DNA from: Promethearchaeota archaeon
GTDB lineage: Archaea; Asgardarchaeota; Lokiarchaeia; Sigyniarchaeales; SOKP01
Assembly (NCBI GenBank): GCA_016839765.1
Contig: JAEOTP010000064.1
Location: forward strand, 1-57,043
DNA length: 57,043 nt
Direction: 5' to 3'
In this document: piece after piece, positions 5,172 to 15,582 of the stretch
Layout: each line of letters starts with the position of its first letter
Position numbering within the stretch: the first letter of the stretch is position 1
The notes under the pieces: generated by a model
What the model was told of the DNA's origin: nothing
The model's input: the letters and a program-made list of their open reading frames with translations, nothing else
Database searches by the model: none
Program-made: the position numbers and the translations under genes

Positions 5172-5609
5172 TTATATAACTTTTAAAGGCCCTAATTCTT
5201 TAATTTGATTCGTAAATTCAGTAATTAAATCCGCGAAGCGCTTGCCTTCTGAAGCACTAACCCATTCTAAACGAACTCTTTTTTCATTAATCCCTAGTTG
5301 TTTTATCACTATTTTATGCAACCTTTCAAATCTTTCTTTAGCATATTCGTTACCTGAGATATAATGACAATCTCCAATATGGCAGCCAGTGACTAATACT
5401 CCATCAGCTCCTTCCTTTAAAGCCTTCATGACAAATACCGGATCTACTCTTCCAGAACACATAACTCTTATAATCCTCATATTGGGAGGATATTGGAACC
5501 TTGAGACTCCTGCTAAATCCGCTCCTGCATAAGAGCACCAATTGCAGCAAAACACAAGTATCTCAGGATTAAAATCTGGATATTTAACTTTAGTTTTTGC
5601 TTTTGGAAT
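5172..5609 (-). CDS. mvhD: MvhD/HdrA-associated [2Fe-2S] subunit, Cys form; probable ATT start
   Basis: FCCNWCSYAGADLAG, RVMCSGRVDP, GCHIGDCHY. The frame stays open upstream of GTG 5555 (..DFNPEILVF) to an in-frame TAA with no ATG/GTG/TTG. ATT at 5609 follows AGGTG by 7 nt. Confidence 0.9.
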   Translation of the reverse strand: MPKAKTKVKYPDFNPEILVFCCNWCSYAGADLAGVSRFQYPPNMRIIRVMCSGRVDPVFVMKALKEGADGVLVTGCHIGDCHYISGNEYAKERFERLHKIVIKQLGINEKRVRLEWVSASEGKRFADLITEFTNQIKELGPLKVI

Positions 5610-5630
5610 GACTTCACACCTTTATTTTTC

Positions 5631-8600
5631 TTAAGTTTCTAATAAATATGATTCTATCATCGCGGTTATTTGATCAAAATCGTATTGCTTTATTGAGATT
5701 GCTCCGTTTGGGCAAGTTGCAGCACATGTGCCACATCCCTTACAGAGGGCAGAATTTATAAAAGATTTTTTTACAGTTAAGCTAATATCCTCAAAATCTT
5801 TTACTGATTCTAGAATATCAATAGCATTATAGGGACATATTGATTCACACTTTCCACATCCTATGCAATTTATTGGATCTACTTCTGCTACTATCCCTGA
5901 GGTGGTAATCTCTTTGGCACTTAGAAATCTACTTGCTCGAGCAGCAGCGCCATTTGCTTGTGAGATTGAATCTTGAATGTTCTTCGGCCATTGAGCACAT
6001 CCACATAAGAAGATTCCATCTGTTGCAAAATCCAGAGGTCTAAGTTTAACATGCGCTTCTAAGAAAAATCCATTTCTATCCAGAGGCACTTTTAACATTT
6101 TTGCTAACTCTTCCAAATTATCTGCAGGGATTATTGGGGTCGATAATATAATTAAATCAGTCTCAAATTCTAAGAAATCTTGTAGGTTGGTATCATAAAA
6201 TTTGATATTATATCTTTCTGGATTTTTATTTATTTGTTTAATTATTAGTAAATTTTCCAAATCATATCTTAAGAAGATAGCATCCTTTCTGCGTTCACGA
6301 TAGTATTCTTCATATTTTTTCTTTGCCATCTGAATATCTCTGTAAAGTACAACAATCTCAAGTTCAGGTTTTAATTTTTTTAGAAGACTAATATTTTTGA
6401 TTGAATTTCCACAACAAATATTTGAACAGTAGGTAATTCCTTCAAGCTGCCTCGCATTTGCACATAAAACAGTCGTTATTCGATTTATCTTAGTAAGCCA
6501 TGATTTTCCTTTTTCTTTTAAAATTTGCTCTAATTCTAGTTGAGTTATAACATTCTTATTTTGGTTATTGTATTGAAACAGATCTTTAGGTTTATATTCT
6601 TTACCTCCAGTAGCAACAATTATAGTTCCAATACTTAAATCTTGAGTTTTGCTATTTGAATCAGCAATAGTTACTACGTAATTACCTACATAACCTCTAA
6701 TATTATTAATTTTTCCTTTTAAGAAAACTTGAATATTCTCATTTTTCTCAACTAAATCAATGGTTTGGTTTAGAAAATCAGAGGCATTTTGTTCGGTTGG
6801 ATATAAAACATTTAGATAATTTAAATTTCCTCCTAGGATGCTTTCTTTTTCTACTATAAATGTTTTGAATCCTTGATTTGCAATATTTAATGCAGCACTC
6901 ATTCCCGCAATTCCACCCCCTATAATTAATGCTGTTGGAGTAATTTTTAACAATTCTTCCCTTAAAGGTTTTAATAACCTTGATTTAGCAATAGCCATTC
7001 TTATTAAGTCTTTAGCTTTTTGGGTTGCGGCTTCTGCATCATCCATATGAACCCAAGAACATTGATCCCTAATATTAACCATTTCAAAGAGATATTTATT
7101 TAATCCAACTTCTTGACATGTTTCTTGAAATAATGCTTCATGTGTTCGAGGTGTACAGGATGCTACGATGAATCTATTTAAATGATGATTTGTAATTAAT
7201 TCTTTAATTCTTGACTGAGAATCAGAGCTACAAGAATATAAATTATCTTCACAATGAACAACATTAGGTAGAGTTCTCACATATTCTGCCAGTAACGGAA
7301 CATGAACATATTTTCCGATATTAATCCCACAATGACAAATTAAAACCCCTATTCTTGGTTCATCAGTATCTTTAGTCTCTAGTTCGGGTACTTCTAACTG
7401 CTTCTCCTTGATTTGCTCAAATTTAACAGAATTTAGAAATGCAGCTATCTGTCCCGCCACACCACTTGCATCTGCAACGGTTTCAGGTATGTCCATCGGG
7501 CCTTGGCAGAATCCACATAAGTAAATCCCATCTTTCGTGGATTTAGATTTATTAAAATAATCTATTTCTTTGAAAAATTCATATTCATCTAATTCTATCC
7601 CTAAAACATTTGATAAAATCTTTGTTCCATTTGAGGGAACTAGAGGAGTAGCTAATACTACTAAATTAGCTTGAAAATCATTAAATTCTCCTGTTTTTAA
7701 ATTTTCATAATGAATAATTAAATCATTAGTTTCAGAATCCTCTTCAATTTTACTAATTTTTGTTTGTATGTATTTCACTCCGTATTCCTTCTGAGCTCTT
7801 TGCGTGAATTCATAGAAATTTTTACCATAAGCTCTAATATCATGTCGAAACACAAAACATTGGGAGCGATTCGAATGTTCTTTCGTGATAATAGCTTCTT
7901 TAGCAGTATACATGCAGCATACGCTTGAACAATAGGGTACACCCTCATGTAAATCTCTTGAACCAGCACATTGAATAAATGCAATTTTCTCAGGCTCTTT
8001 TTGATCACTTGGTCGCAAGACATGACCACCAAAAGGTCCTGAAGCACATAAAATTCTTTCATATTCTAATGCACTTACTACATTATTATACCGATATCCC
8101 CACCTTGAAGTTAACTTTTCAGCTGGTATATCAAATCCAGTCGCAACTACAATAGCTCCAACCTTTAATTCTATTTCCATAGGTTTTTGCTCAAAATCTA
8201 TTGCTTCAGCTTGACAAACTTTAGCACATACACCACATACTCCTTTATTTATTTTTAAGCATAATTCAGGATCTATTAAGTAAATTGGAGGAACTGCTTG
8301 AGGAAATGGAATGTAAGCAGATTTTCTTTTGCCTAGCTTCATATCAAATAGATTAGGTACTTCTATTTTTGGACATTTTATAGCGCAATCTCCACACCCC
8401 TTACATTTAGTCTCATCTACATATCGTGGCTTTTTAAGAATAATAGCAGAGAAATTCCCAGGTTCTCCAGAAACTTTTTTTACTTCATGATAAGTCATAA
8501 GTTTAATATTTGGATTACGGAATACCTCAACCATCTTTGGAGCAAGAATACAAAGGCTGCAATCGTTAGTTGGAAATGTTTTATCGAGCTGAGCCATACG

Positions 8601-8729
8601 ACCTCCAATTGAGGGATTTCTTTCTACTAAATATACCTTAAAACCTAATTCTGTTAGGTCTAATGAAGTTTGAATACCTGCGATTCCTCCTCCGATAACT
8701 AAAACAGATCCTTCCATTATTTTTTTCAA
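5631..8729 (-). CDS. hdrA: Large HdrA-type heterodisulfide reductase flavoprotein (two FAD domains, all-Cys)
   Basis: GGGIAG x2, LDKTFPTNDCSLCILAPK, ICHCG, YSCS, ASCTPRTHE, QCSWVH and ferredoxin motifs. Confidence 0.92.
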   Translation of the reverse strand: MKKIMEGSVLVIGGGIAGIQTSLDLTELGFKVYLVERNPSIGGRMAQLDKTFPTNDCSLCILAPKMVEVFRNPNIKLMTYHEVKKVSGEPGNFSAIILKKPRYVDETKCKGCGDCAIKCPKIEVPNLFDMKLGKRKSAYIPFPQAVPPIYLIDPELCLKINKGVCGVCAKVCQAEAIDFEQKPMEIELKVGAIVVATGFDIPAEKLTSRWGYRYNNVVSALEYERILCASGPFGGHVLRPSDQKEPEKIAFIQCAGSRDLHEGVPYCSSVCCMYTAKEAIITKEHSNRSQCFVFRHDIRAYGKNFYEFTQRAQKEYGVKYIQTKISKIEEDSETNDLIIHYENLKTGEFNDFQANLVVLATPLVPSNGTKILSNVLGIELDEYEFFKEIDYFNKSKSTKDGIYLCGFCQGPMDIPETVADASGVAGQIAAFLNSVKFEQIKEKQLEVPELETKDTDEPRIGVLICHCGINIGKYVHVPLLAEYVRTLPNVVHCEDNLYSCSSDSQSRIKELITNHHLNRFIVASCTPRTHEALFQETCQEVGLNKYLFEMVNIRDQCSWVHMDDAEAATQKAKDLIRMAIAKSRLLKPLREELLKITPTALIIGGGIAGMSAALNIANQGFKTFIVEKESILGGNLNYLNVLYPTEQNASDFLNQTIDLVEKNENIQVFLKGKINNIRGYVGNYVVTIADSNSKTQDLSIGTIIVATGGKEYKPKDLFQYNNQNKNVITQLELEQILKEKGKSWLTKINRITTVLCANARQLEGITYCSNICCGNSIKNISLLKKLKPELEIVVLYRDIQMAKKKYEEYYRERRKDAIFLRYDLENLLIIKQINKNPERYNIKFYDTNLQDFLEFETDLIILSTPIIPADNLEELAKMLKVPLDRNGFFLEAHVKLRPLDFATDGIFLCGCAQWPKNIQDSISQANGAAARASRFLSAKEITTSGIVAEVDPINCIGCGKCESICPYNAIDILESVKDFEDISLTVKKSFINSALCKGCGTCAATCPNGAISIKQYDFDQITAMIESYLLET

Positions 8730-9988
8730 TCACCTTTAGATTTAGTACGAATAACTTTAACATGATTTATTATGAACTCTGAAAAATCCAAAATTTCAAT
8801 TGATGCAAGATCTTCAAAATCATTTTGAAGACAAGTGAGGTGTATATTACACTTTGGACAAGAAGTAATTAATTTTGATCCCGCTAATTTTGCTTCCTGC
8901 ATTCGCTTGTATCTTAAAGCTTTTGACTTTTCATTACAATTCATCCAAGAATTTACGCCACAGCACAAGGAATTTTCTTTATTATGTGCCATTTCATTGA
9001 ATTGATATCCTAAATACTTAAATTCTCTAAAAATTTCTCTAACTTTGTTTGTTATATTATCATTTTCTGGTAAAAATCTACTTAATCTGCAAGGATCGTG
9101 ATACGTGAATTGAATTTCTTTTTCTGATTTGTTTGGATTCTTAAATTCAATTTTTTGGCTTTTCCAATTCTCATAAATATAGTCAATAATGTGCTTTACT
9201 TCAAAATTTTCATCAAATTCATCAAAAATATTCGCATAATCAATCTTAAATGTTCTGTAGCACTCTGCGCAGGCAGTAACAATAGTTCTTACTCCTGCAT
9301 TCTTGAATTTTTCAAGATTTTTTTTTGCTAGTTTTATAAATGTCTTTAATTTTCCTTGTCCCCAATAAATATCATGTCCACAGCAGATTTCTTCTTTAAA
9401 AACCACTATAGGTTTTTTTTCAATTTGGTATATTAATTTTAATGTGCTAATAGCAATAGAGTTTAAATTTTCAAATTCATAATTGAAGAATGGCAAACAG
9501 CCCACATAATATAAAATGTCGCCCTTATCTGATATCTTGCAATTTTTAGGAATCCAATCCATATTTCTATCAGGATTAATATATGGACGACTCATTATTT
9601 CAGAAATTGTAGTGTATATGCCTTTATGTGCCACAAATTCATCAGAACTTTGATTTTTCTCATGCCTCATTTTATAACGAGCCATCCTTACAATATCAGC
9701 AAAATTAATTTTTACTGGACAATCCTTAAGGCATTGATTACATGTTAAACAATCCCATAATTCTCCACTTTCCAATACTTTATTTTCAAAGCCTTCTAAA
9801 ATTAATTGAATTATTTTACTTGGTGTATATTTTTGAACTTTACTTAGTTGGCATACACCACTACATCTTCCACATTGATAACACTTCTTTAATAAATTTC
9901 TTAATTCTGGTTCGTATATTTTCTCCAAATAATCATATGCATCTGTGAAAAGTTTTCTCCTCTCTATATCTCTTTTTGATTCGGTTAT
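8726..9988 (-). CDS. HdrD-like (HdrC-HdrB fusion) Fe-S protein with CCG domains; probable ATA start
   Basis: CYQCGRCSGVC, CLTCNQCLKDCP, YYVGC, EICCG, TACAEC, YHDPC, SLCCG, TSCPKC. The frame is open 20 codons upstream of TTG 9928 to an ATA 6 nt after GAGGAG. Confidence 0.85.
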   Translation of the reverse strand: MTESKRDIERRKLFTDAYDYLEKIYEPELRNLLKKCYQCGRCSGVCQLSKVQKYTPSKIIQLILEGFENKVLESGELWDCLTCNQCLKDCPVKINFADIVRMARYKMRHEKNQSSDEFVAHKGIYTTISEIMSRPYINPDRNMDWIPKNCKISDKGDILYYVGCLPFFNYEFENLNSIAISTLKLIYQIEKKPIVVFKEEICCGHDIYWGQGKLKTFIKLAKKNLEKFKNAGVRTIVTACAECYRTFKIDYANIFDEFDENFEVKHIIDYIYENWKSQKIEFKNPNKSEKEIQFTYHDPCRLSRFLPENDNITNKVREIFREFKYLGYQFNEMAHNKENSLCCGVNSWMNCNEKSKALRYKRMQEAKLAGSKLITSCPKCNIHLTCLQNDFEDLASIEILDFSEFIINHVKVIRTKSKGD

Positions 9989-10001
9989 GGTTTTCTCCTC
10001 T

Positions 10002-11114
10002 TTAGAGTATATTTTTCATAAATTCTTCTCGACGTTTAACCTTCGATTCTGAATATTGAGTTATCAATTTTATCATTTTATCCTTTTGAACTTCATCAAG
10101 ATCTACTGCTCTGATTACCCCCGCGTCTAGAGCTTTTTTCAACACGTCTATTCCTTTTTTAGTTCGCGGGATTACAGTAGTGTATTTATCTTGTGAACCT
10201 AATCCCCCAAAAGAAATATCAGCATAAATGTTTGTGAAATCACTGCAAGCATTACATGCAGGGCGCATATAGTCTTTTAAGTGATTAAAAGGAATATGAA
10301 TAATTTTTTCACCAGTTCCCATATCCTTTAACTTGAATATAACATCTTCTTTAATATTTATTTTTTCGAGATCTCTAAATTTTATATTAAAATCTTTTTC
10401 AAATTTTTCTATTTGAAATTTCTCAAAGAAGAAATTTTCATAACAGAATAAGCCTAAGCAGATTTCTATATTTTCTGATGGGGTTACCCCTAAATCTTGC
10501 ATGCACCTAATCGTGTAAAGTTGGCACGGAGTTCCTACAACCGCCAATTTCTTAAATTTATAGTGATTTAATTTGGGGATAGAATGAGTATACGTACAGA
10601 ATTTTTGGATTTCATCAAGCTGGGGAGATATATCTAATTTAGCTCCTGAAGCTTTTATTAAATCATATTTACTGTCAGCGAAAGTTGCTTCTCTTGAAAA
10701 AGGAGCATCAGTTTTTGAAACAATAGAGCCATCAATTAACCTTTTTTCAATTAAAAAATTTATAATAGAATTTACTACTCCTCCATCAGTTCCATAATCT
10801 AGAAAATCCTTATCCGTTGCTTGACATGAATAAATATTCTCGTAATATCCAATTGGCGTTGACGAAAATCCTGCAAATTTATAGGTTTGATTAAGTTCAT
10901 TATCTAGAACATGAGTTTGTGGGCAAATATAATAACAAATCCCACACTCAAGACATTTATCTTTATTAATATATTCAGGAGGTTTATATGGATCTTTTAA
11001 TCCAATCACATCATATTCAGCTGAACTACAAAAACTTACACATCCACCACATTCTTGGCAGATACCTTTTTCGTGAACCTCCTCAATAAGATCCTGGAAT
11101 GTTTTAGAATCCAT
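10002..11114 (-). CDS. Coenzyme F420 hydrogenase/dehydrogenase beta subunit (FrhB/FdhB family) with N-terminal 2x[4Fe-4S]
   Basis: CQECGGCVSFC, CLECGICYYICP, DGGVV, VGTPCQ, GLFCYENF, C..C.DF...ADISFG. Confidence 0.88.
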   Translation of the reverse strand: MDSKTFQDLIEEVHEKGICQECGGCVSFCSSAEYDVIGLKDPYKPPEYINKDKCLECGICYYICPQTHVLDNELNQTYKFAGFSSTPIGYYENIYSCQATDKDFLDYGTDGGVVNSIINFLIEKRLIDGSIVSKTDAPFSREATFADSKYDLIKASGAKLDISPQLDEIQKFCTYTHSIPKLNHYKFKKLAVVGTPCQLYTIRCMQDLGVTPSENIEICLGLFCYENFFFEKFQIEKFEKDFNIKFRDLEKINIKEDVIFKLKDMGTGEKIIHIPFNHLKDYMRPACNACSDFTNIYADISFGGLGSQDKYTTVIPRTKKGIDVLKKALDAGVIRAVDLDEVQKDKMIKLITQYSESKVKRREEFMKNIL

Positions 11115-11128
11115 AATTATTAAATTTT

Positions 11129-12631
11129 TTATTCTTTTTGTGTTTCTAATATAATAGGTTTACATTTTTTTCTTTTGGATATAGCTATCCTCTCAACAAG
11201 ACCTTGTCCTGGTTTAACTTCCTTCAAATTTTGGTATTCTATCAAGCCAGCATCAACCGCTCCTTTAAAAATTTCTTCTCCTTCTTTTGAACGTGTGATT
11301 ACAGAAGAATAACCACTTTGTGAGCCAATGGAGCCTACTGAAATATCTGCATAGTCTGAGGTTAGATCCTCACAGTAATGACAATTATCTCGTGCATACG
11401 ATTGAACTTCTTTCAAATCTACTGCCAATTCTTCACCTGATTTTAAAGTTATTATGAACTTACCCTTATCTATGTTCATCTTTGTTAATTCATTAATATC
11501 TTGGTTAAATTTATCTTTCGCCAATTTAATGATATCCAAGTAAGAAAATGACTCCATACAAAACAAGCCAACTTTATATTTAATATTTTTAAAGAACGGG
11601 AGTCCACTTGGGAATAGGGTTCCCTTTTCAATAGCTTTCATCATACAAGGAACGCCTACGATTGCAATCTTATTATATTTCTTTGCTTGATCTATAATTT
11701 TTAATGAGGGCGCATTGGCATATTTTGTACCCCCTGTTTTATATAAATCTTTTACATCATCTATTATAATTGGTTCTGGTCTCCATAAATCACTTGAATG
11801 TTGTACTGCTATTATCGCATCTACTAATTTATTCTCTAATAAGTACTCTAATAAAGATGTTACAATACCTCCATCTTGACGCACTTTCTTTATTTCATCT
11901 TTAGTTGTTGTTCCCGTATATGCATTAATATAACCCCCTATTTTTTCAGAGTAAGTCAGTGATTTATCTAGTTTTTTGATACTTTGATAAGCTTGATCAA
12001 TAGAAAAGGAGCGAGGACATACTGTAAAACATAAACCGCATTTCATACAAATATTATCATCGATTTCAAGATTATCTGCTGTTACTTCTATTGCATTTAC
12101 TGGACATACAGAAGAACACCACCCACAATAACAACAGACTCCTGAATCGAATACTATTGAAACTGGTTCAAAATAATGTTCAGTAAAATCATGCGGCACC
12201 TCTTTTACTTGATATCTATAGAAATATTCCTTTTCTTCGACTTCTTTTTCTTCCCCCTTTATTTTTTTTATTACCGTTTTTGTTTTAATTTCGACTTGTT
12301 CTTCAACGTATCCTTGCTCCTTTAAATAAATAACGTCTCGGATTACATTTTCAGCTAGAAAAGCTTTAATACTTTTAGTGATTTCTTCTAAAAATAATGG
12401 TTTTTTACCTCTTAGTTGATCCAAGACTATTTTGCGTTCAGTTTCTGCATCTATCATAGTATCTAGAATTTCATAGAATTCTTGCTCAGAATATTTCCCA
12501 GTTTTTAATATTTCTTCTTTTGCTTCAAAAAATGCTCTAACTTGAAAATTTTCAGAAGCTTTATATGTTGCTTCTAATAATTCCTTAGGAGAAATTCCAC
12601 TAAACAATTTATTATTTACTATTTGAACCAT
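11129..12631 (-). CDS. FrhB/FdhB-family protein with a ~150-aa extra N-terminal helical/winged-helix-like region
   Basis: CCYCGWCSSVCP, CMKCGLCFTVCP, QDGGIVT, GTKY, VGVPC, GLFCMESF, CHYCEDLTSDYADISVG. Confidence 0.88.
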   Translation of the reverse strand: MVQIVNNKLFSGISPKELLEATYKASENFQVRAFFEAKEEILKTGKYSEQEFYEILDTMIDAETERKIVLDQLRGKKPLFLEEITKSIKAFLAENVIRDVIYLKEQGYVEEQVEIKTKTVIKKIKGEEKEVEEKEYFYRYQVKEVPHDFTEHYFEPVSIVFDSGVCCYCGWCSSVCPVNAIEVTADNLEIDDNICMKCGLCFTVCPRSFSIDQAYQSIKKLDKSLTYSEKIGGYINAYTGTTTKDEIKKVRQDGGIVTSLLEYLLENKLVDAIIAVQHSSDLWRPEPIIIDDVKDLYKTGGTKYANAPSLKIIDQAKKYNKIAIVGVPCMMKAIEKGTLFPSGLPFFKNIKYKVGLFCMESFSYLDIIKLAKDKFNQDINELTKMNIDKGKFIITLKSGEELAVDLKEVQSYARDNCHYCEDLTSDYADISVGSIGSQSGYSSVITRSKEGEEIFKGAVDAGLIEYQNLKEVKPGQGLVERIAISKRKKCKPIILETQKE

Positions 12632-12690
12632 ATTTCAATCCATTTCTATCCTTAACTAAAAAATTCAAATTTATTATTAATTAATTTAAA

Positions 12691-12762
12691 AACCCCCCCT
12701 TTGCAAGGTAAGTCACCTTAAAACTAAAATTTTATTTTAAGATTCATTCTACGGGAGTAGTT
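12691..12762 (-). promoter_or_regulatory. Eukaryote-like SECIS element overlapping the vhuD stop codon
   Basis: Minus strand GTAG-A-ATGA-ATCTTAAAAT-[AAAATTTTA]-GTTTTAAGGT-GA-C-TTAC: AUGA/GA kink-turn core, 10-bp helix (2 G-U pairs), apical loop beginning AAA, lower helix GTAG/TTAC plus AACT(A)CTCCC/GGGGGGGTT. Confidence 0.8.
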
Positions 12763-13202
12763 ACTACTTTCTTTTTAATAGATTTCATATCCATGGTATT
12801 AATCGGATTTGGTCCCGCCCGCCTTATTTTTTCAAGAGCGTCTTCAACGCTTTTAACTAGTTTTTCAGATTCTGCACCGCTTAACCAGTACATGTTGACT
12901 CTTTGACTTCCAAACCCTCGAGATTCTAAAATTCTATTTGCCAAATCTACATGTCTTTGGGCTGTATAATTACCATTTTTAAATTGACATTCATCAGGTC
13001 TTCATCCAACAACCATAACACCATCAGCTCCAGATTTGATAGTATATAAAATATGTTTCACATCAATCCTTCCAGTACACTTAACTTTGATGATTTTTAC
13101 TGATGGTGTATACTTTAAACGAGAAACTCCAGCCAAATCAGCAGCACTATAACCTCACTTTAAACAAGCAAACATAATTATTTTATAGTTATAACCTTCC
13201 AT
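12744..13202 (-). CDS. vhuD: Selenocysteine-containing MvhD/VhuD (152 aa; Sec16, Sec67)
   Basis: ATG 13202 after GGAGG: MEGYNYKIIMFACLK-U-GYSAADLAGVSR...KCTGRID...GADGVMVVG-U-RPDECQF. In-frame TGAs at 13155-13157 and 13002-13004 match Cys in the paralogue motifs CNWCSY and GCHIGDC. Confidence 0.92.
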
Positions 13203-13210
13203 TTTGATGT

Positions 13211-15151
13211 TTAACCTCCTTCTAGTAATCCATCTATCTCAGCATATAATTGATAATCACGGTAATAACGAATATCAATAGCTTGTGTAGGACAACAGGT
13301 TGCACATATCCCGCATCCATCGCAATTTATTTCATCAACAACAGCGCCTTCCTCATCGACTATTTTAATAGCCATCTTAGGACATTCTTTTTCACATCTT
13401 CTGCATGAGATACAAAACTCATTATCTACTTCAGCAGTAATAAGCTCAATATCTATCTCTCCTGGGGCTGTTAATTCAGCGACTTTACTCGCTGCTGCTC
13501 TTGCTTGGGATACGGAATAGGCAATGTCCTTAGGACCTTGAGCAAAGCCCGCAATAAAGATACCTTTTGTTTTAGTTTCTTGCGGCATTAAGCCAAAGTG
13601 GGATTCAGTTAGAAATCCATTTCTGTCAGCATCCAAATTTAAGACTTTTACAATTCGTTGTGTTCCTTCAGAAGGTAATGCTGCGGTAGATAACACTACT
13701 AGATCAGCATCTATTTTAATGATTTCATCAGTTAAAGAAGAGTAAACTCTAATTTTAATGTCTTTACTCTCAGGGTCTTCTGAAAATTCACCAACTTTAC
13801 CGCGAATCATCTTAATATCGGAGTCTTTAGCACGCTGATAATATTCTTCGAAACCTTTTTCATTAGTTCTTATATCAATATAGCATATAGTAATATTTGC
13901 GTCTGGAAATTCTTCTTTAAGTAATTTTCCATTCTTTAATGCTAACATACAACAAACACCGCTACAATATGGTCGTTCTGAGTCTCTACTACCGACACAT
14001 TGGATAAAAACGATTTCTTTTGGTTTTTTATTGTCTGATAGGCGCCTTACATGTCCCTCTAAAGGTCCGTTTGGTGCTAGTATTCTTTCTAATTGAGCTT
14101 GAGTTATTACATTTTCGAACTCACCATAACCATATTCACCAAAAGGTTCATAAATATCCCACCCCGTTGCTATGATTATTGTGCCAACTTTAAATTTTAC
14201 CTCTTTAGGTACTTGACTGAAATCTATAGCATCTAATTCACAAGCTTCTATACAGCTAAAACATTCAACGCATGAATCCCTGTTTACATCATACAAAAAT
14301 GGTACTGCTTGACCGAATGCAATATCTATGGCCTTACGAGCGCCCAAATATTCATCAAAATAGTTAGAAGTATAAACGGGACAAACTTCAGCACAAGCTC
14401 CACATCCATTGCAATCTTCATTGATGTATCTTGGTTTCATCTTAACTATTATATTATAATTACCAACATATCCAGAAACCTCTTTTACTTCACTAAAACT
14501 TAGAATCTCTATATTTTCATTTCGATTGACATCTAGCATTTTTGGACCACAGATTCATATAGCACAGTCATCAGTGGGAAATGTCCGGTCTAATTGTGCC
14601 ATTCTACCTCCAATAGTTGTTTTACTATCTACAAGATAAACCTTAATACCTTGATTAGCAAGATCTAAAGCAGCATTCATCCCTGCTATTCCTCCACCCA
14701 CTACCAGTGTAGCTTTTTCAACAGGAACAGTTTTAATTGGCACTATTTCAAGTTGTTTTGCTCGCTCAATCCCACTTTTTACTAAGATTTTAGCTTTGTC
14801 TAAAGCTTCTTCATTCTTTTCTGTACACCAAGAACAATGTTCTCGAACATTAACCATCTGAAAATAGTATGGATTTAAATCGGTTTTGGCGATTGAATCT
14901 CTATAAATCGGTTCGTGAGTACGAGGAGTTCAAGCAGAAGCTACAATACGATTTAATTTCTTCTCTTTGATGTCTTCAATAATCTCGTTTTGACCGCTTT
15001 CTGTTCATAGGAAACTGTGCTGTTTCGAGACAATTACTCCATCGAGTTTTTTAGCAAATTCTACTAGCTTATTGCAATCAACTTTGCCACGAATATTAAT
15101 ACCTCATTGACAAGCATAGTATCCAATCCGATGCATATCAGATTCTTCCAT
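13211..15151 (-). CDS. hdrA: Selenocysteine-containing HdrA (646 aa; Sec16, Sec49, Sec74, Sec199)
   Basis: One continuous frame from ATG 15151 (GAGGTGG upstream) joins ORFs 14555..14857 and 13211..14539. TGAs at 15104-6 (ACQ-U-GINI), 15005-7 (FL-U-TE), 14930-2 (ASA-U-TPRTHE) and 14555-7 (DDCAI-U-ICGPK) each align to a Cys of the 5631..8729 paralogue. Confidence 0.92.
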
Positions 15152-15582
15152 CTTTTTTTACACATCCACCTCTAATTTGACAATTTTGTATAGTTCTTTT
15201 CCTATAGTTTTTGTTTCTTAATTATGATCAATTTCCGATATTGAAAATTGATTTATTATCGAGAATTGGCTTTTTTTTCATTCTTTTTTAACTTTTATGT
15301 TATTTATACTTAAATAATTTGTTATTTTCCAGTATAATAAAATTCTGATAATTTAATTACTAAAATAGGTAATTTTATCCCATTTCGAAAAATTTACTCA
15401 ATTTAATTGAGGAATTTAATAATCTAATACTAAAAAATAATTGGATTTAATAAAATAAGGTTTCAAAAATCACTGTATTTTAAAAAGAAAAATTTATATC
15501 CTTATTCGACATGAATGTATAATAATATAGAATCAATAGGGTTTCACTTGAAACCTAAAATTTAATTGTTAATAAAAATGAT

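Follow-up and report, generated by a model that had tools for sequence, protein, structure and literature searches.

Selenoprotein genes of the Lokiarchaeota were described by Mariotti et al. (2016, Mol Biol Evol; PMC4989117), who reported heterodisulfide reductase subunit A (HdrA) genes with multiple selenocysteine (Sec) sites, up to four per gene, and found VhuD always directly downstream of HdrA. A single selenocysteine insertion sequence (SECIS) element, the lokiSECIS, follows VhuD in each pair and was described as serving 'up to six UGA codons' over '~2 kb' of a polycistronic mRNA. It consists of AUGA, a 9-bp stem, an 11-nt loop with an A-rich start and a terminal G, and GA; the AUGA may double as a stop codon (described for VhuU.1), and the HdrA stop is always UAA or UAG (PMC4989117). 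A later survey of 227 Sec-using Asgard genomes again found adjacent hdrA and frhD/vhuD genes sharing one element (Huang et al. 2024, ISME J; PMC11227280), and a 2026 review restates this shared element. Here we analyse an hdrA-vhuD locus with one SECIS-like element on contig JAEOTP010000064.1 of the metagenome-assembled genome of an uncultured Promethearchaeota archaeon (assembly GCA_016839765.1). Promethearchaeota is the current name of the Lokiarchaeota. The whole stretch of 57,043 nt is called the window, and all window coordinates refer to it.

The locus agrees closely with the published pair. Gene order, the very short gap, the canonical Sec position near residue 200 of HdrA and a VhuD with two Sec sites are the same as in Mariotti et al. 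(2016), one AUGA/9-bp/11-nt/GA element is present after vhuD, and hdrA never ends in UGA, which vhuD may do. Their number of UGAs, up to six within about 2 kb, fits this locus as well. We found no essential difference; the AUGA that serves as a stop belongs to vhuD here and to VhuU.1 in the paper. The Asgard type I eSECIS-like element (PMC11227280) shares the AUGA_GA core, the A-rich apical loop and the constant adjacency of hdrA and frhD with this locus, no difference was found, and the host genome is one further example. We put the probability that the locus represents the selenoprotein pair hdrA-vhuD described for Lokiarchaeota, with one lokiSECIS serving both genes, at roughly 0.85. The arrangement itself is already known for this lineage from the publications of 2016 and 2024.

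More distant systems share part of this layout. In Methanococcales and Methanopyrus, genes of both selenoprotein families follow one another as they do here, the SECIS lies 3' of the coding sequence, and VhuD has two Sec under one element. However, HdrA in these organisms has one Sec and its own SECIS (per Mariotti et al.), and the elements are of the GAA_A type, for which no match was obtained at this locus. Experiments in Methanococcus (Peiter et al.; PMC9622424) show that an archaeal SECIS at the 3' end can work from at least 679 nt away. Eukaryotic SECIS elements of the 3' untranslated region (3'-UTR), such as those of selenoprotein P, have the same kink-turn AUGA..GA core and apical adenosines, and they too serve several UGAs per message from a distant position at the 3' end. 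They differ in serving monocistronic messages and in having a longer stem, and selenoprotein P uses two SECIS elements.

Six in-frame UGA codons in hdrA and vhuD

Standard decoding of the minus strand from 15151 to 12744 yields short open reading frames (ORFs) only, but two complete genes appear when TGA is read as Sec. The first, hdrA (15151..13211, 646 aa), contains four in-frame UGA codons and ends in TAA at 13213-13211. Its product carries Pfam FAD-binding and Fer4 domains and aligns over residues 8-644 with the solved HdrA 9sfi_A (E 3e-201). The second, vhuD/mvhD of the FlpD family (13202..12744, 152 aa), follows on the same strand after a gap of 8 nt (13210-13203); it starts with ATG at 13202, contains two in-frame UGA codons and ends in TGA at 12746-12744. 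The product is matched by Pfam FlpD (E 1.6e-43) and has the tail ...TTPVE directly before the stop. An earlier sequence-only reading of this DNA had reported six UGA codons in two cistrons, a separation of 8 nt and a TAA stop of hdrA; all of these are borne out, with the UGAs at codons 16, 49, 74 and 199 of hdrA and codons 16 and 67 of vhuD.

Comparison with solved structures and orthologues places these codons at positions occupied by cysteine (Cys) or Sec. Codons 16 (15106-15104), 49 (15007-15005) and 74 (14932-14930) of hdrA correspond to Cys in 9sfi_A, and codon 199 (14557-14555), the canonical HdrA Sec site, corresponds to a non-standard residue X which is probably Sec. UGA is present in 69/69 orthologues at codons 16, 74 and 199. 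At codon 49, 48 orthologues have UGA and 21 have a Cys codon, an alternation that reads as a classic Sec/Cys exchange. Codons 16 (13157-13155) and 67 (13004-13002) of vhuD both correspond to X in 9sfi_K and to Cys in 9sw2_D, and the Cys-type MvhD of the same window (5555..5172) has Cys at each of the two sites. From this pattern of conservation we infer Sec insertion at each of the six UGAs, and the six codons are almost certainly read as Sec.

It could be argued that the UGAs are not Sec codons at all, either due to decay of hdrA or because the organism decodes UGA as another amino acid. Standard ORF calling does split hdrA into pieces, and no Rfam family matches the region. However, the hdrA frame is intact across 80 genomes at 76-97% identity with its UGAs fixed at Cys/Sec columns. 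TGA is also a normal stop in this genome, ending 13% of host ORFs of at least 200 aa, the neighbouring HdrD-like gene included. In addition, the genome encodes Sec machinery, namely tRNA-Sec, SepSecS (377 bits) and a SelD that itself carries one in-frame TGA. We regard this explanation as hardly credible.

Four orthologous loci (L041, L055, L057 and L088) have a fifth in-frame UGA in hdrA. The sites are Fe-S Cys positions (window residues 297, 300 or 613) and are occupied by Cys in all remaining orthologues. These loci would thus reach seven UGAs per SECIS, one above the 'up to six' published by Mariotti et al. (2016).

The SECIS element at the end of vhuD

Analysis of the window supports the statement of the sequence-only reading that the sole SECIS-like fold lies after vhuD, about 2.4 kb from the first UGA. 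The whole element occupies 12758..12692 on the minus strand. From 66 orthologous elements we built a covariance model, which carries vhuD flanks; searched against the window with filters off, it gives a single match (12761-12699, 82.5 bits, E 1e-20). Distances from the six UGAs to the AUGA are 2,359, 2,260, 2,185, 1,810, 410 and 257 nt, from first to sixth.

The AUGA (12747-12744) is followed by an upper helix of 9 bp (12743-12735 with 12723-12715), in which 9/9 positions are paired with one G-U. The helix is capped by an A-rich apical loop of 11 nt, UAAAAUUUUAG (12734-12724), and the GA lies 3' of the stem at 12714-12713 (GA or AA in orthologues). Outside the published core, a lower helix is formed by ACUCCC (12758-12753) and GGGGGU (12697-12692). 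A less well supported side hairpin, CC..GG, is present on the 3' side (12708-12698); its mean stem is 4.3 bp as compared to 3.5 bp in shuffled flanks. The element thus has all the sequence and structure features of the lokiSECIS and of the Asgard type I eSECIS-like element, namely AUGA, 9-bp stem, 11-nt loop, A-rich loop start, final G, GA and a location at the end of the coding sequence.

Folding energy of the element is by itself ordinary for AT-rich surroundings (z -0.35). The strict SECIS shape was found exactly in 0/300 shuffles of the operon, and the case for the element rests on this exact shape and on its conservation rather than on fold energy. Wherever the end of vhuD could be recognised in an orthologous locus, this shape was present at the same position. 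All 66 aligned elements agree in the AUGA, in AAA at loop positions 3-5, in the final G of the loop and in the A of GA. Seven of the nine upper-helix pairs show changes on both sides, and 0/500 shuffles came up to the observed values. Sliding the partner columns by 1-3 positions reduces upper-stem pairing to 41-57% from 94%, a percentage that is partly built in, since the 66 distinct orthologous elements were collected with a filter of at most one stem mismatch; compensatory changes and constant position are unaffected by this filter. The lower helix is retained in orthologues despite differing sequence (CUCUCUCGU/AUGGGAGAG, AGCUCC/GGAGCU and AACACCCAA/UUGGGUGUU).

The element overlaps the final codons of vhuD together with the stop, so that the UGA of its AUGA doubles as the vhuD stop codon. 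This refines the earlier account of the locus. The last codons of vhuD (...TTPVE-stop) at the same time supply the 5' strand of the lower helix together with the AUGA, and this double use explains the conservation of the TTPVE tail of VhuD. A backup in-frame TAA (12732..12734) is present three codons past the UGA stop, inside the SECIS loop, and vhuD orthologues also have a stop 2-3 codons past the AUGA.

A run of five T (12692..12688) is located directly past the lower helix, and a T-run occupies this place in most orthologues. Such a T-run is the usual archaeal termination signal. The run at 12692-12688 is likely the end of the transcript, its termination role being putative, and its position suggests that the SECIS forms the last part of the transcript.

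Rfam models, eukaryotic SECIS models included, detected no SECIS or other credible family in the whole region, both at the gathering score and at E <=10. Standard SECIS tools likewise miss the lokiSECIS (PMC4989117).

Evidence for one element probably serving both cistrons

The stop codons of hdrA are informative in this regard. Among 72 orthologues 58 end in TAA, 14 in TAG and none in TGA, against 13% TGA among ORFs of at least 200 aa; these counts come from related, non-independent genes and no P-value is attached to them. Absence of TGA is what would be expected if any UGA in the hdrA frame were recoded.

Spacing between the two genes in orthologues ranges from a 50-nt overlap to a 46-nt gap, mostly 4-8 nt, according to automatic start calls. 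The Shine-Dalgarno sequence of vhuD, GGAGG (13215..13219, minus strand), is situated within the final codons of hdrA, which has the appearance of an internal cistron. Its position is conserved in orthologues and shifts into the gap where the gap is longer or the hdrA end differs. The 8-nt gap, the Shine-Dalgarno sequence inside hdrA and the T-run after the SECIS point indirectly to a probable co-transcription of hdrA and vhuD.

Other loci of the same genome are consistent with this arrangement. Two further hdrA-vhuD pairs, on contigs C35 and C59, each have one SECIS after vhuD. A paralogue of hdrA on contig C33 (15236-17334; L003/L097), coding for 678 aa with UGA at codons 17 and 201, is not accompanied by vhuD, and its own lokiSECIS is located directly after its TAA stop. 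This gene is a natural control for a signal shared between the two cistrons. The three Cys-only hdrA copies of the genome have no SECIS match. Seven strong SECIS matches exist genome-wide, all of them behind ORFs with an in-frame UGA. Taken with the stop codons, the short gaps and the Shine-Dalgarno sequence, the control on C33 supports the central claim of the sequence-only reading that one SECIS is apparently shared by both cistrons.

An alternative is that the two genes are transcribed separately, in which case the SECIS of the vhuD mRNA would act in trans on the hdrA mRNA, or the hdrA UGAs would be read without a SECIS. A TATA-like AT-rich stretch in the 3' end of hdrA is in favour of separate transcripts. 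However, only 8 nt without a T-run separate the genes, the vhuD Shine-Dalgarno sequence is inside hdrA, and avoidance of a TGA stop in 72/72 hdrA orthologues is expected only for a cis signal acting over the whole frame. The SECIS of Methanococcus is also needed in cis, in the 3'-UTR (PMC9622424). Separate transcription appears very improbable to us.

Two small ORFs elsewhere in the genome were noticed during this search. On contig C20 (L099:1171-1503), an ORF of 111 aa, to which Pfam assigned no family, encodes a G-C-U-U-E motif with two in-frame UGAs side by side, and a lokiSECIS-like match (27 bits, E 0.001) is present behind it; it is possible that this is a small selenoprotein with a Cys-Sec-Sec centre. 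On contig C12 (L094:1317-1508), a 64-aa ORF, also without a Pfam family, codes for a hydrophobic helix at the N terminus and for a GGG-U-P-C motif. Behind it lies a strong lokiSECIS (60 bits) whose AUGA forms the stop of the ORF, and the product is possibly a membrane-anchored selenoprotein.

Search for a second SECIS element

The sequence-only reading had named a covariance-model scan of hdrA and its leader as a check on its claim. Such a scan gives no second SECIS in the window or in 76 orthologous loci. Within hdrA of the window, the best sense-strand match scores 7.1 bits (E 7.8), which is noise. A comparative scan covered 80 related loci (376 kb), of which 76 have exactly one match, of 58-86 bits, located behind vhuD; hdrA and its leader are without a sense-strand match at E <0.1 in the 80 loci. 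A relaxed descriptor (stem 7-12 bp, loop 8-24 nt, 1 mismatch) adds one match in the operon, which has no A-run, and the same descriptor finds 4.4 +/- 3.2 matches in the shuffled operon.

Elements of other kinds were also looked for. A Methanococcus-type descriptor (helix, GAA/A bulge, 3-bp G+C helix and small loop), written from the consensus, gave 0 matches for a GAA_A SECIS in 15582..12500. Bacterial SECIS elements likewise convert UGA to Sec, but they are hairpins placed directly 3' of each UGA. No such hairpin is seen here, as the 45 nt after each of the six UGAs are less stable than the median 45-nt window of the operon.

In the hdrA leader, only about 50 nt before the ATG look conserved, as judged by eye from a listing anchored on the first UGA. 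This stretch holds the Shine-Dalgarno sequence and a TATA-like palindromic block and therefore leaves little space for a 5' element. In many orthologues an inverted repeat, TACAA..TTGTA, is present in a conserved TATACAAAATTGT block about 35-50 nt before the hdrA start (window 15210-15180, minus strand). The TATACAAAATTGT block could be a promoter or an operator.

In 13 orthologues, a pattern with the shape of a SECIS (AUGA, 9 bp, 11 nt, 9 bp, GA) occurs within hdrA at a distance of about 1,340 nt from the gene start. We rejected it as an element of its own, as it is spelled by the conserved peptide MIRGKVGEFSED and lacks the AAA and the final G of the loop. It has no covariance-model match, and the window copy fails the pairing test.

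Points against a single shared signal and constraint at the hdrA 5' end

Several points weigh against the shared-SECIS reading. Our literature search found no transcript, proteomic or labelling evidence for any Asgard hdrA-vhuD pair, and no experimental test of any Asgard SECIS. An internal promoter of vhuD could be present. Neither archaeal EFSec nor PSTK was specifically identified in the genome, the elongation factor having been searched for with a bacterial SelB model. The covariance model was made from filter-picked elements with vhuD flanks, and a very different recoding signal would escape it. Finally, codons 3-16 of hdrA (15145-15104, minus strand) show the strongest synonymous-site constraint of the gene (z ~-6, 69 orthologues), and the constrained first 16 codons could hide an extra element.

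This constraint is visible in individual codons. Arg8 is encoded by CGG in 53/62 Arg codons, as compared to a CGG share of 4% genome-wide, and Tyr11 by TAC in 57/61 Tyr codons, as compared to a genome share of 16%. The region of the hdrA start codon and first UGA shows no conserved fold (alifold -0.7 kcal/mol; z -0.9).

The observation provides the basis for another explanation, in which hdrA has its own unrecognised recoding signal in the coding sequence or at its 5' end, leaving the element after vhuD to serve that gene alone. In its favour, the constrained codons with their conserved rare CGG and TAC lie 5' of the first UGA. However, they show no conserved fold and no match to the covariance model or the descriptors, and being upstream of the first UGA only they cannot account for codons 49, 74 and 199. 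The low stability of the 45 nt after each UGA also argues against a local signal, and so does the hdrA copy without vhuD, which has a normal lokiSECIS after its stop. We consider a separate hdrA signal quite unlikely.

A different role for codons 3-16 would be that of an extra cis element which helps the distal SECIS to initiate the decoding of Sec after only 45 nt of message, at a UGA 2.4 kb from the signal, a proposal that we hold to be improbable. It might work by imposing a programmed pause, or by contact at a site near the SECIS. One candidate for the contact is a stretch of vhuD 55 nt 5' of the SECIS: hdrA AUCGGAUUGG (15132-15123) is complementary over 10 nt to vhuD CCAAAUCCGAU (12812-12802), with one bulged A in the window. 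The vhuD stretch forms the GPNPI codons, both partners use rare codons, and the AUCGGAUUGG motif has a single occurrence in the genome. The duplex has a predicted energy of -22 kcal/mol, and the next-best chance site reaches -20. We rejected this long-range pairing, as there is no covariation and the paired fraction is 0.777 versus 0.780 with shuffled partners; the complementarity is probably due to chance.

A second Sec-hdrA paralogue was examined for an equal 5' constraint. Only weak dips (z ~-2) were found around its UGAs in 15 sequences, and equal constraint was rejected. The constraint in hdrA may be an ordinary start-region effect, or may be tied to the very early first UGA.

Neighbouring genes

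Between vhuD and the HdrD-like gene lie two FrhB-like genes, which are free of in-frame TGA and stop at TAA. The HdrD-like gene (9928..8726, minus strand), with CCG and Fer4 domains, ends in TGA. The sequence-only reading is accurate here in stating that genes past the SECIS are free of in-frame UGA and that the HdrD-like gene stops at TGA. It is possible that the SECIS works only on codons upstream of it. However, the TGA stop of the HdrD-like gene says little on direction, because this stop lies 4 kb beyond the T-run that probably ends the transcript.

As a whole, the minus strand from 5172 to 15151 comprises a Sec module (hdrA, vhuD) and a Cys module, with the two FrhB-like genes and the HdrD-like gene between them. 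Members of the Cys module are an HdrA-like fusion of 1032 aa (8729..5631) and MvhD (5555..5172). Genes for the large or small subunit of a hydrogenase are absent from this stretch. Nearest relatives of the locus are Promethearchaeota metagenome-assembled genomes, with up to 97% protein identity.

Proposed mode of action and significance

In the shared-SECIS reading, hdrA and vhuD would be transcribed as one mRNA, which would end at the T-run just past a eukaryote-like kink-turn SECIS overlapping the end of vhuD. The SECIS, bound by a putative SECIS-binding factor, would recruit a Sec-specific elongation factor carrying Sec-tRNA(Sec). From its place 257 to 2,359 nt away, it would let ribosomes read all six UGAs of both cistrons as Sec. 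The UGA within the AUGA core would be too near for recoding and would act as the vhuD stop.

To our knowledge, a single 3' signal that recodes up to six or seven stop codons over two cistrons is unmatched in known biology. The shared SECIS ties the archaeal to the eukaryotic selenocysteine systems, a point already raised in 2016 and covered by later surveys. The window is another clean example of this arrangement rather than a discovery. With exact UGA coordinates, a three-helix model of the SECIS, a probable transcript end and 76 orthologous loci, the locus offers a well-defined test case for it.

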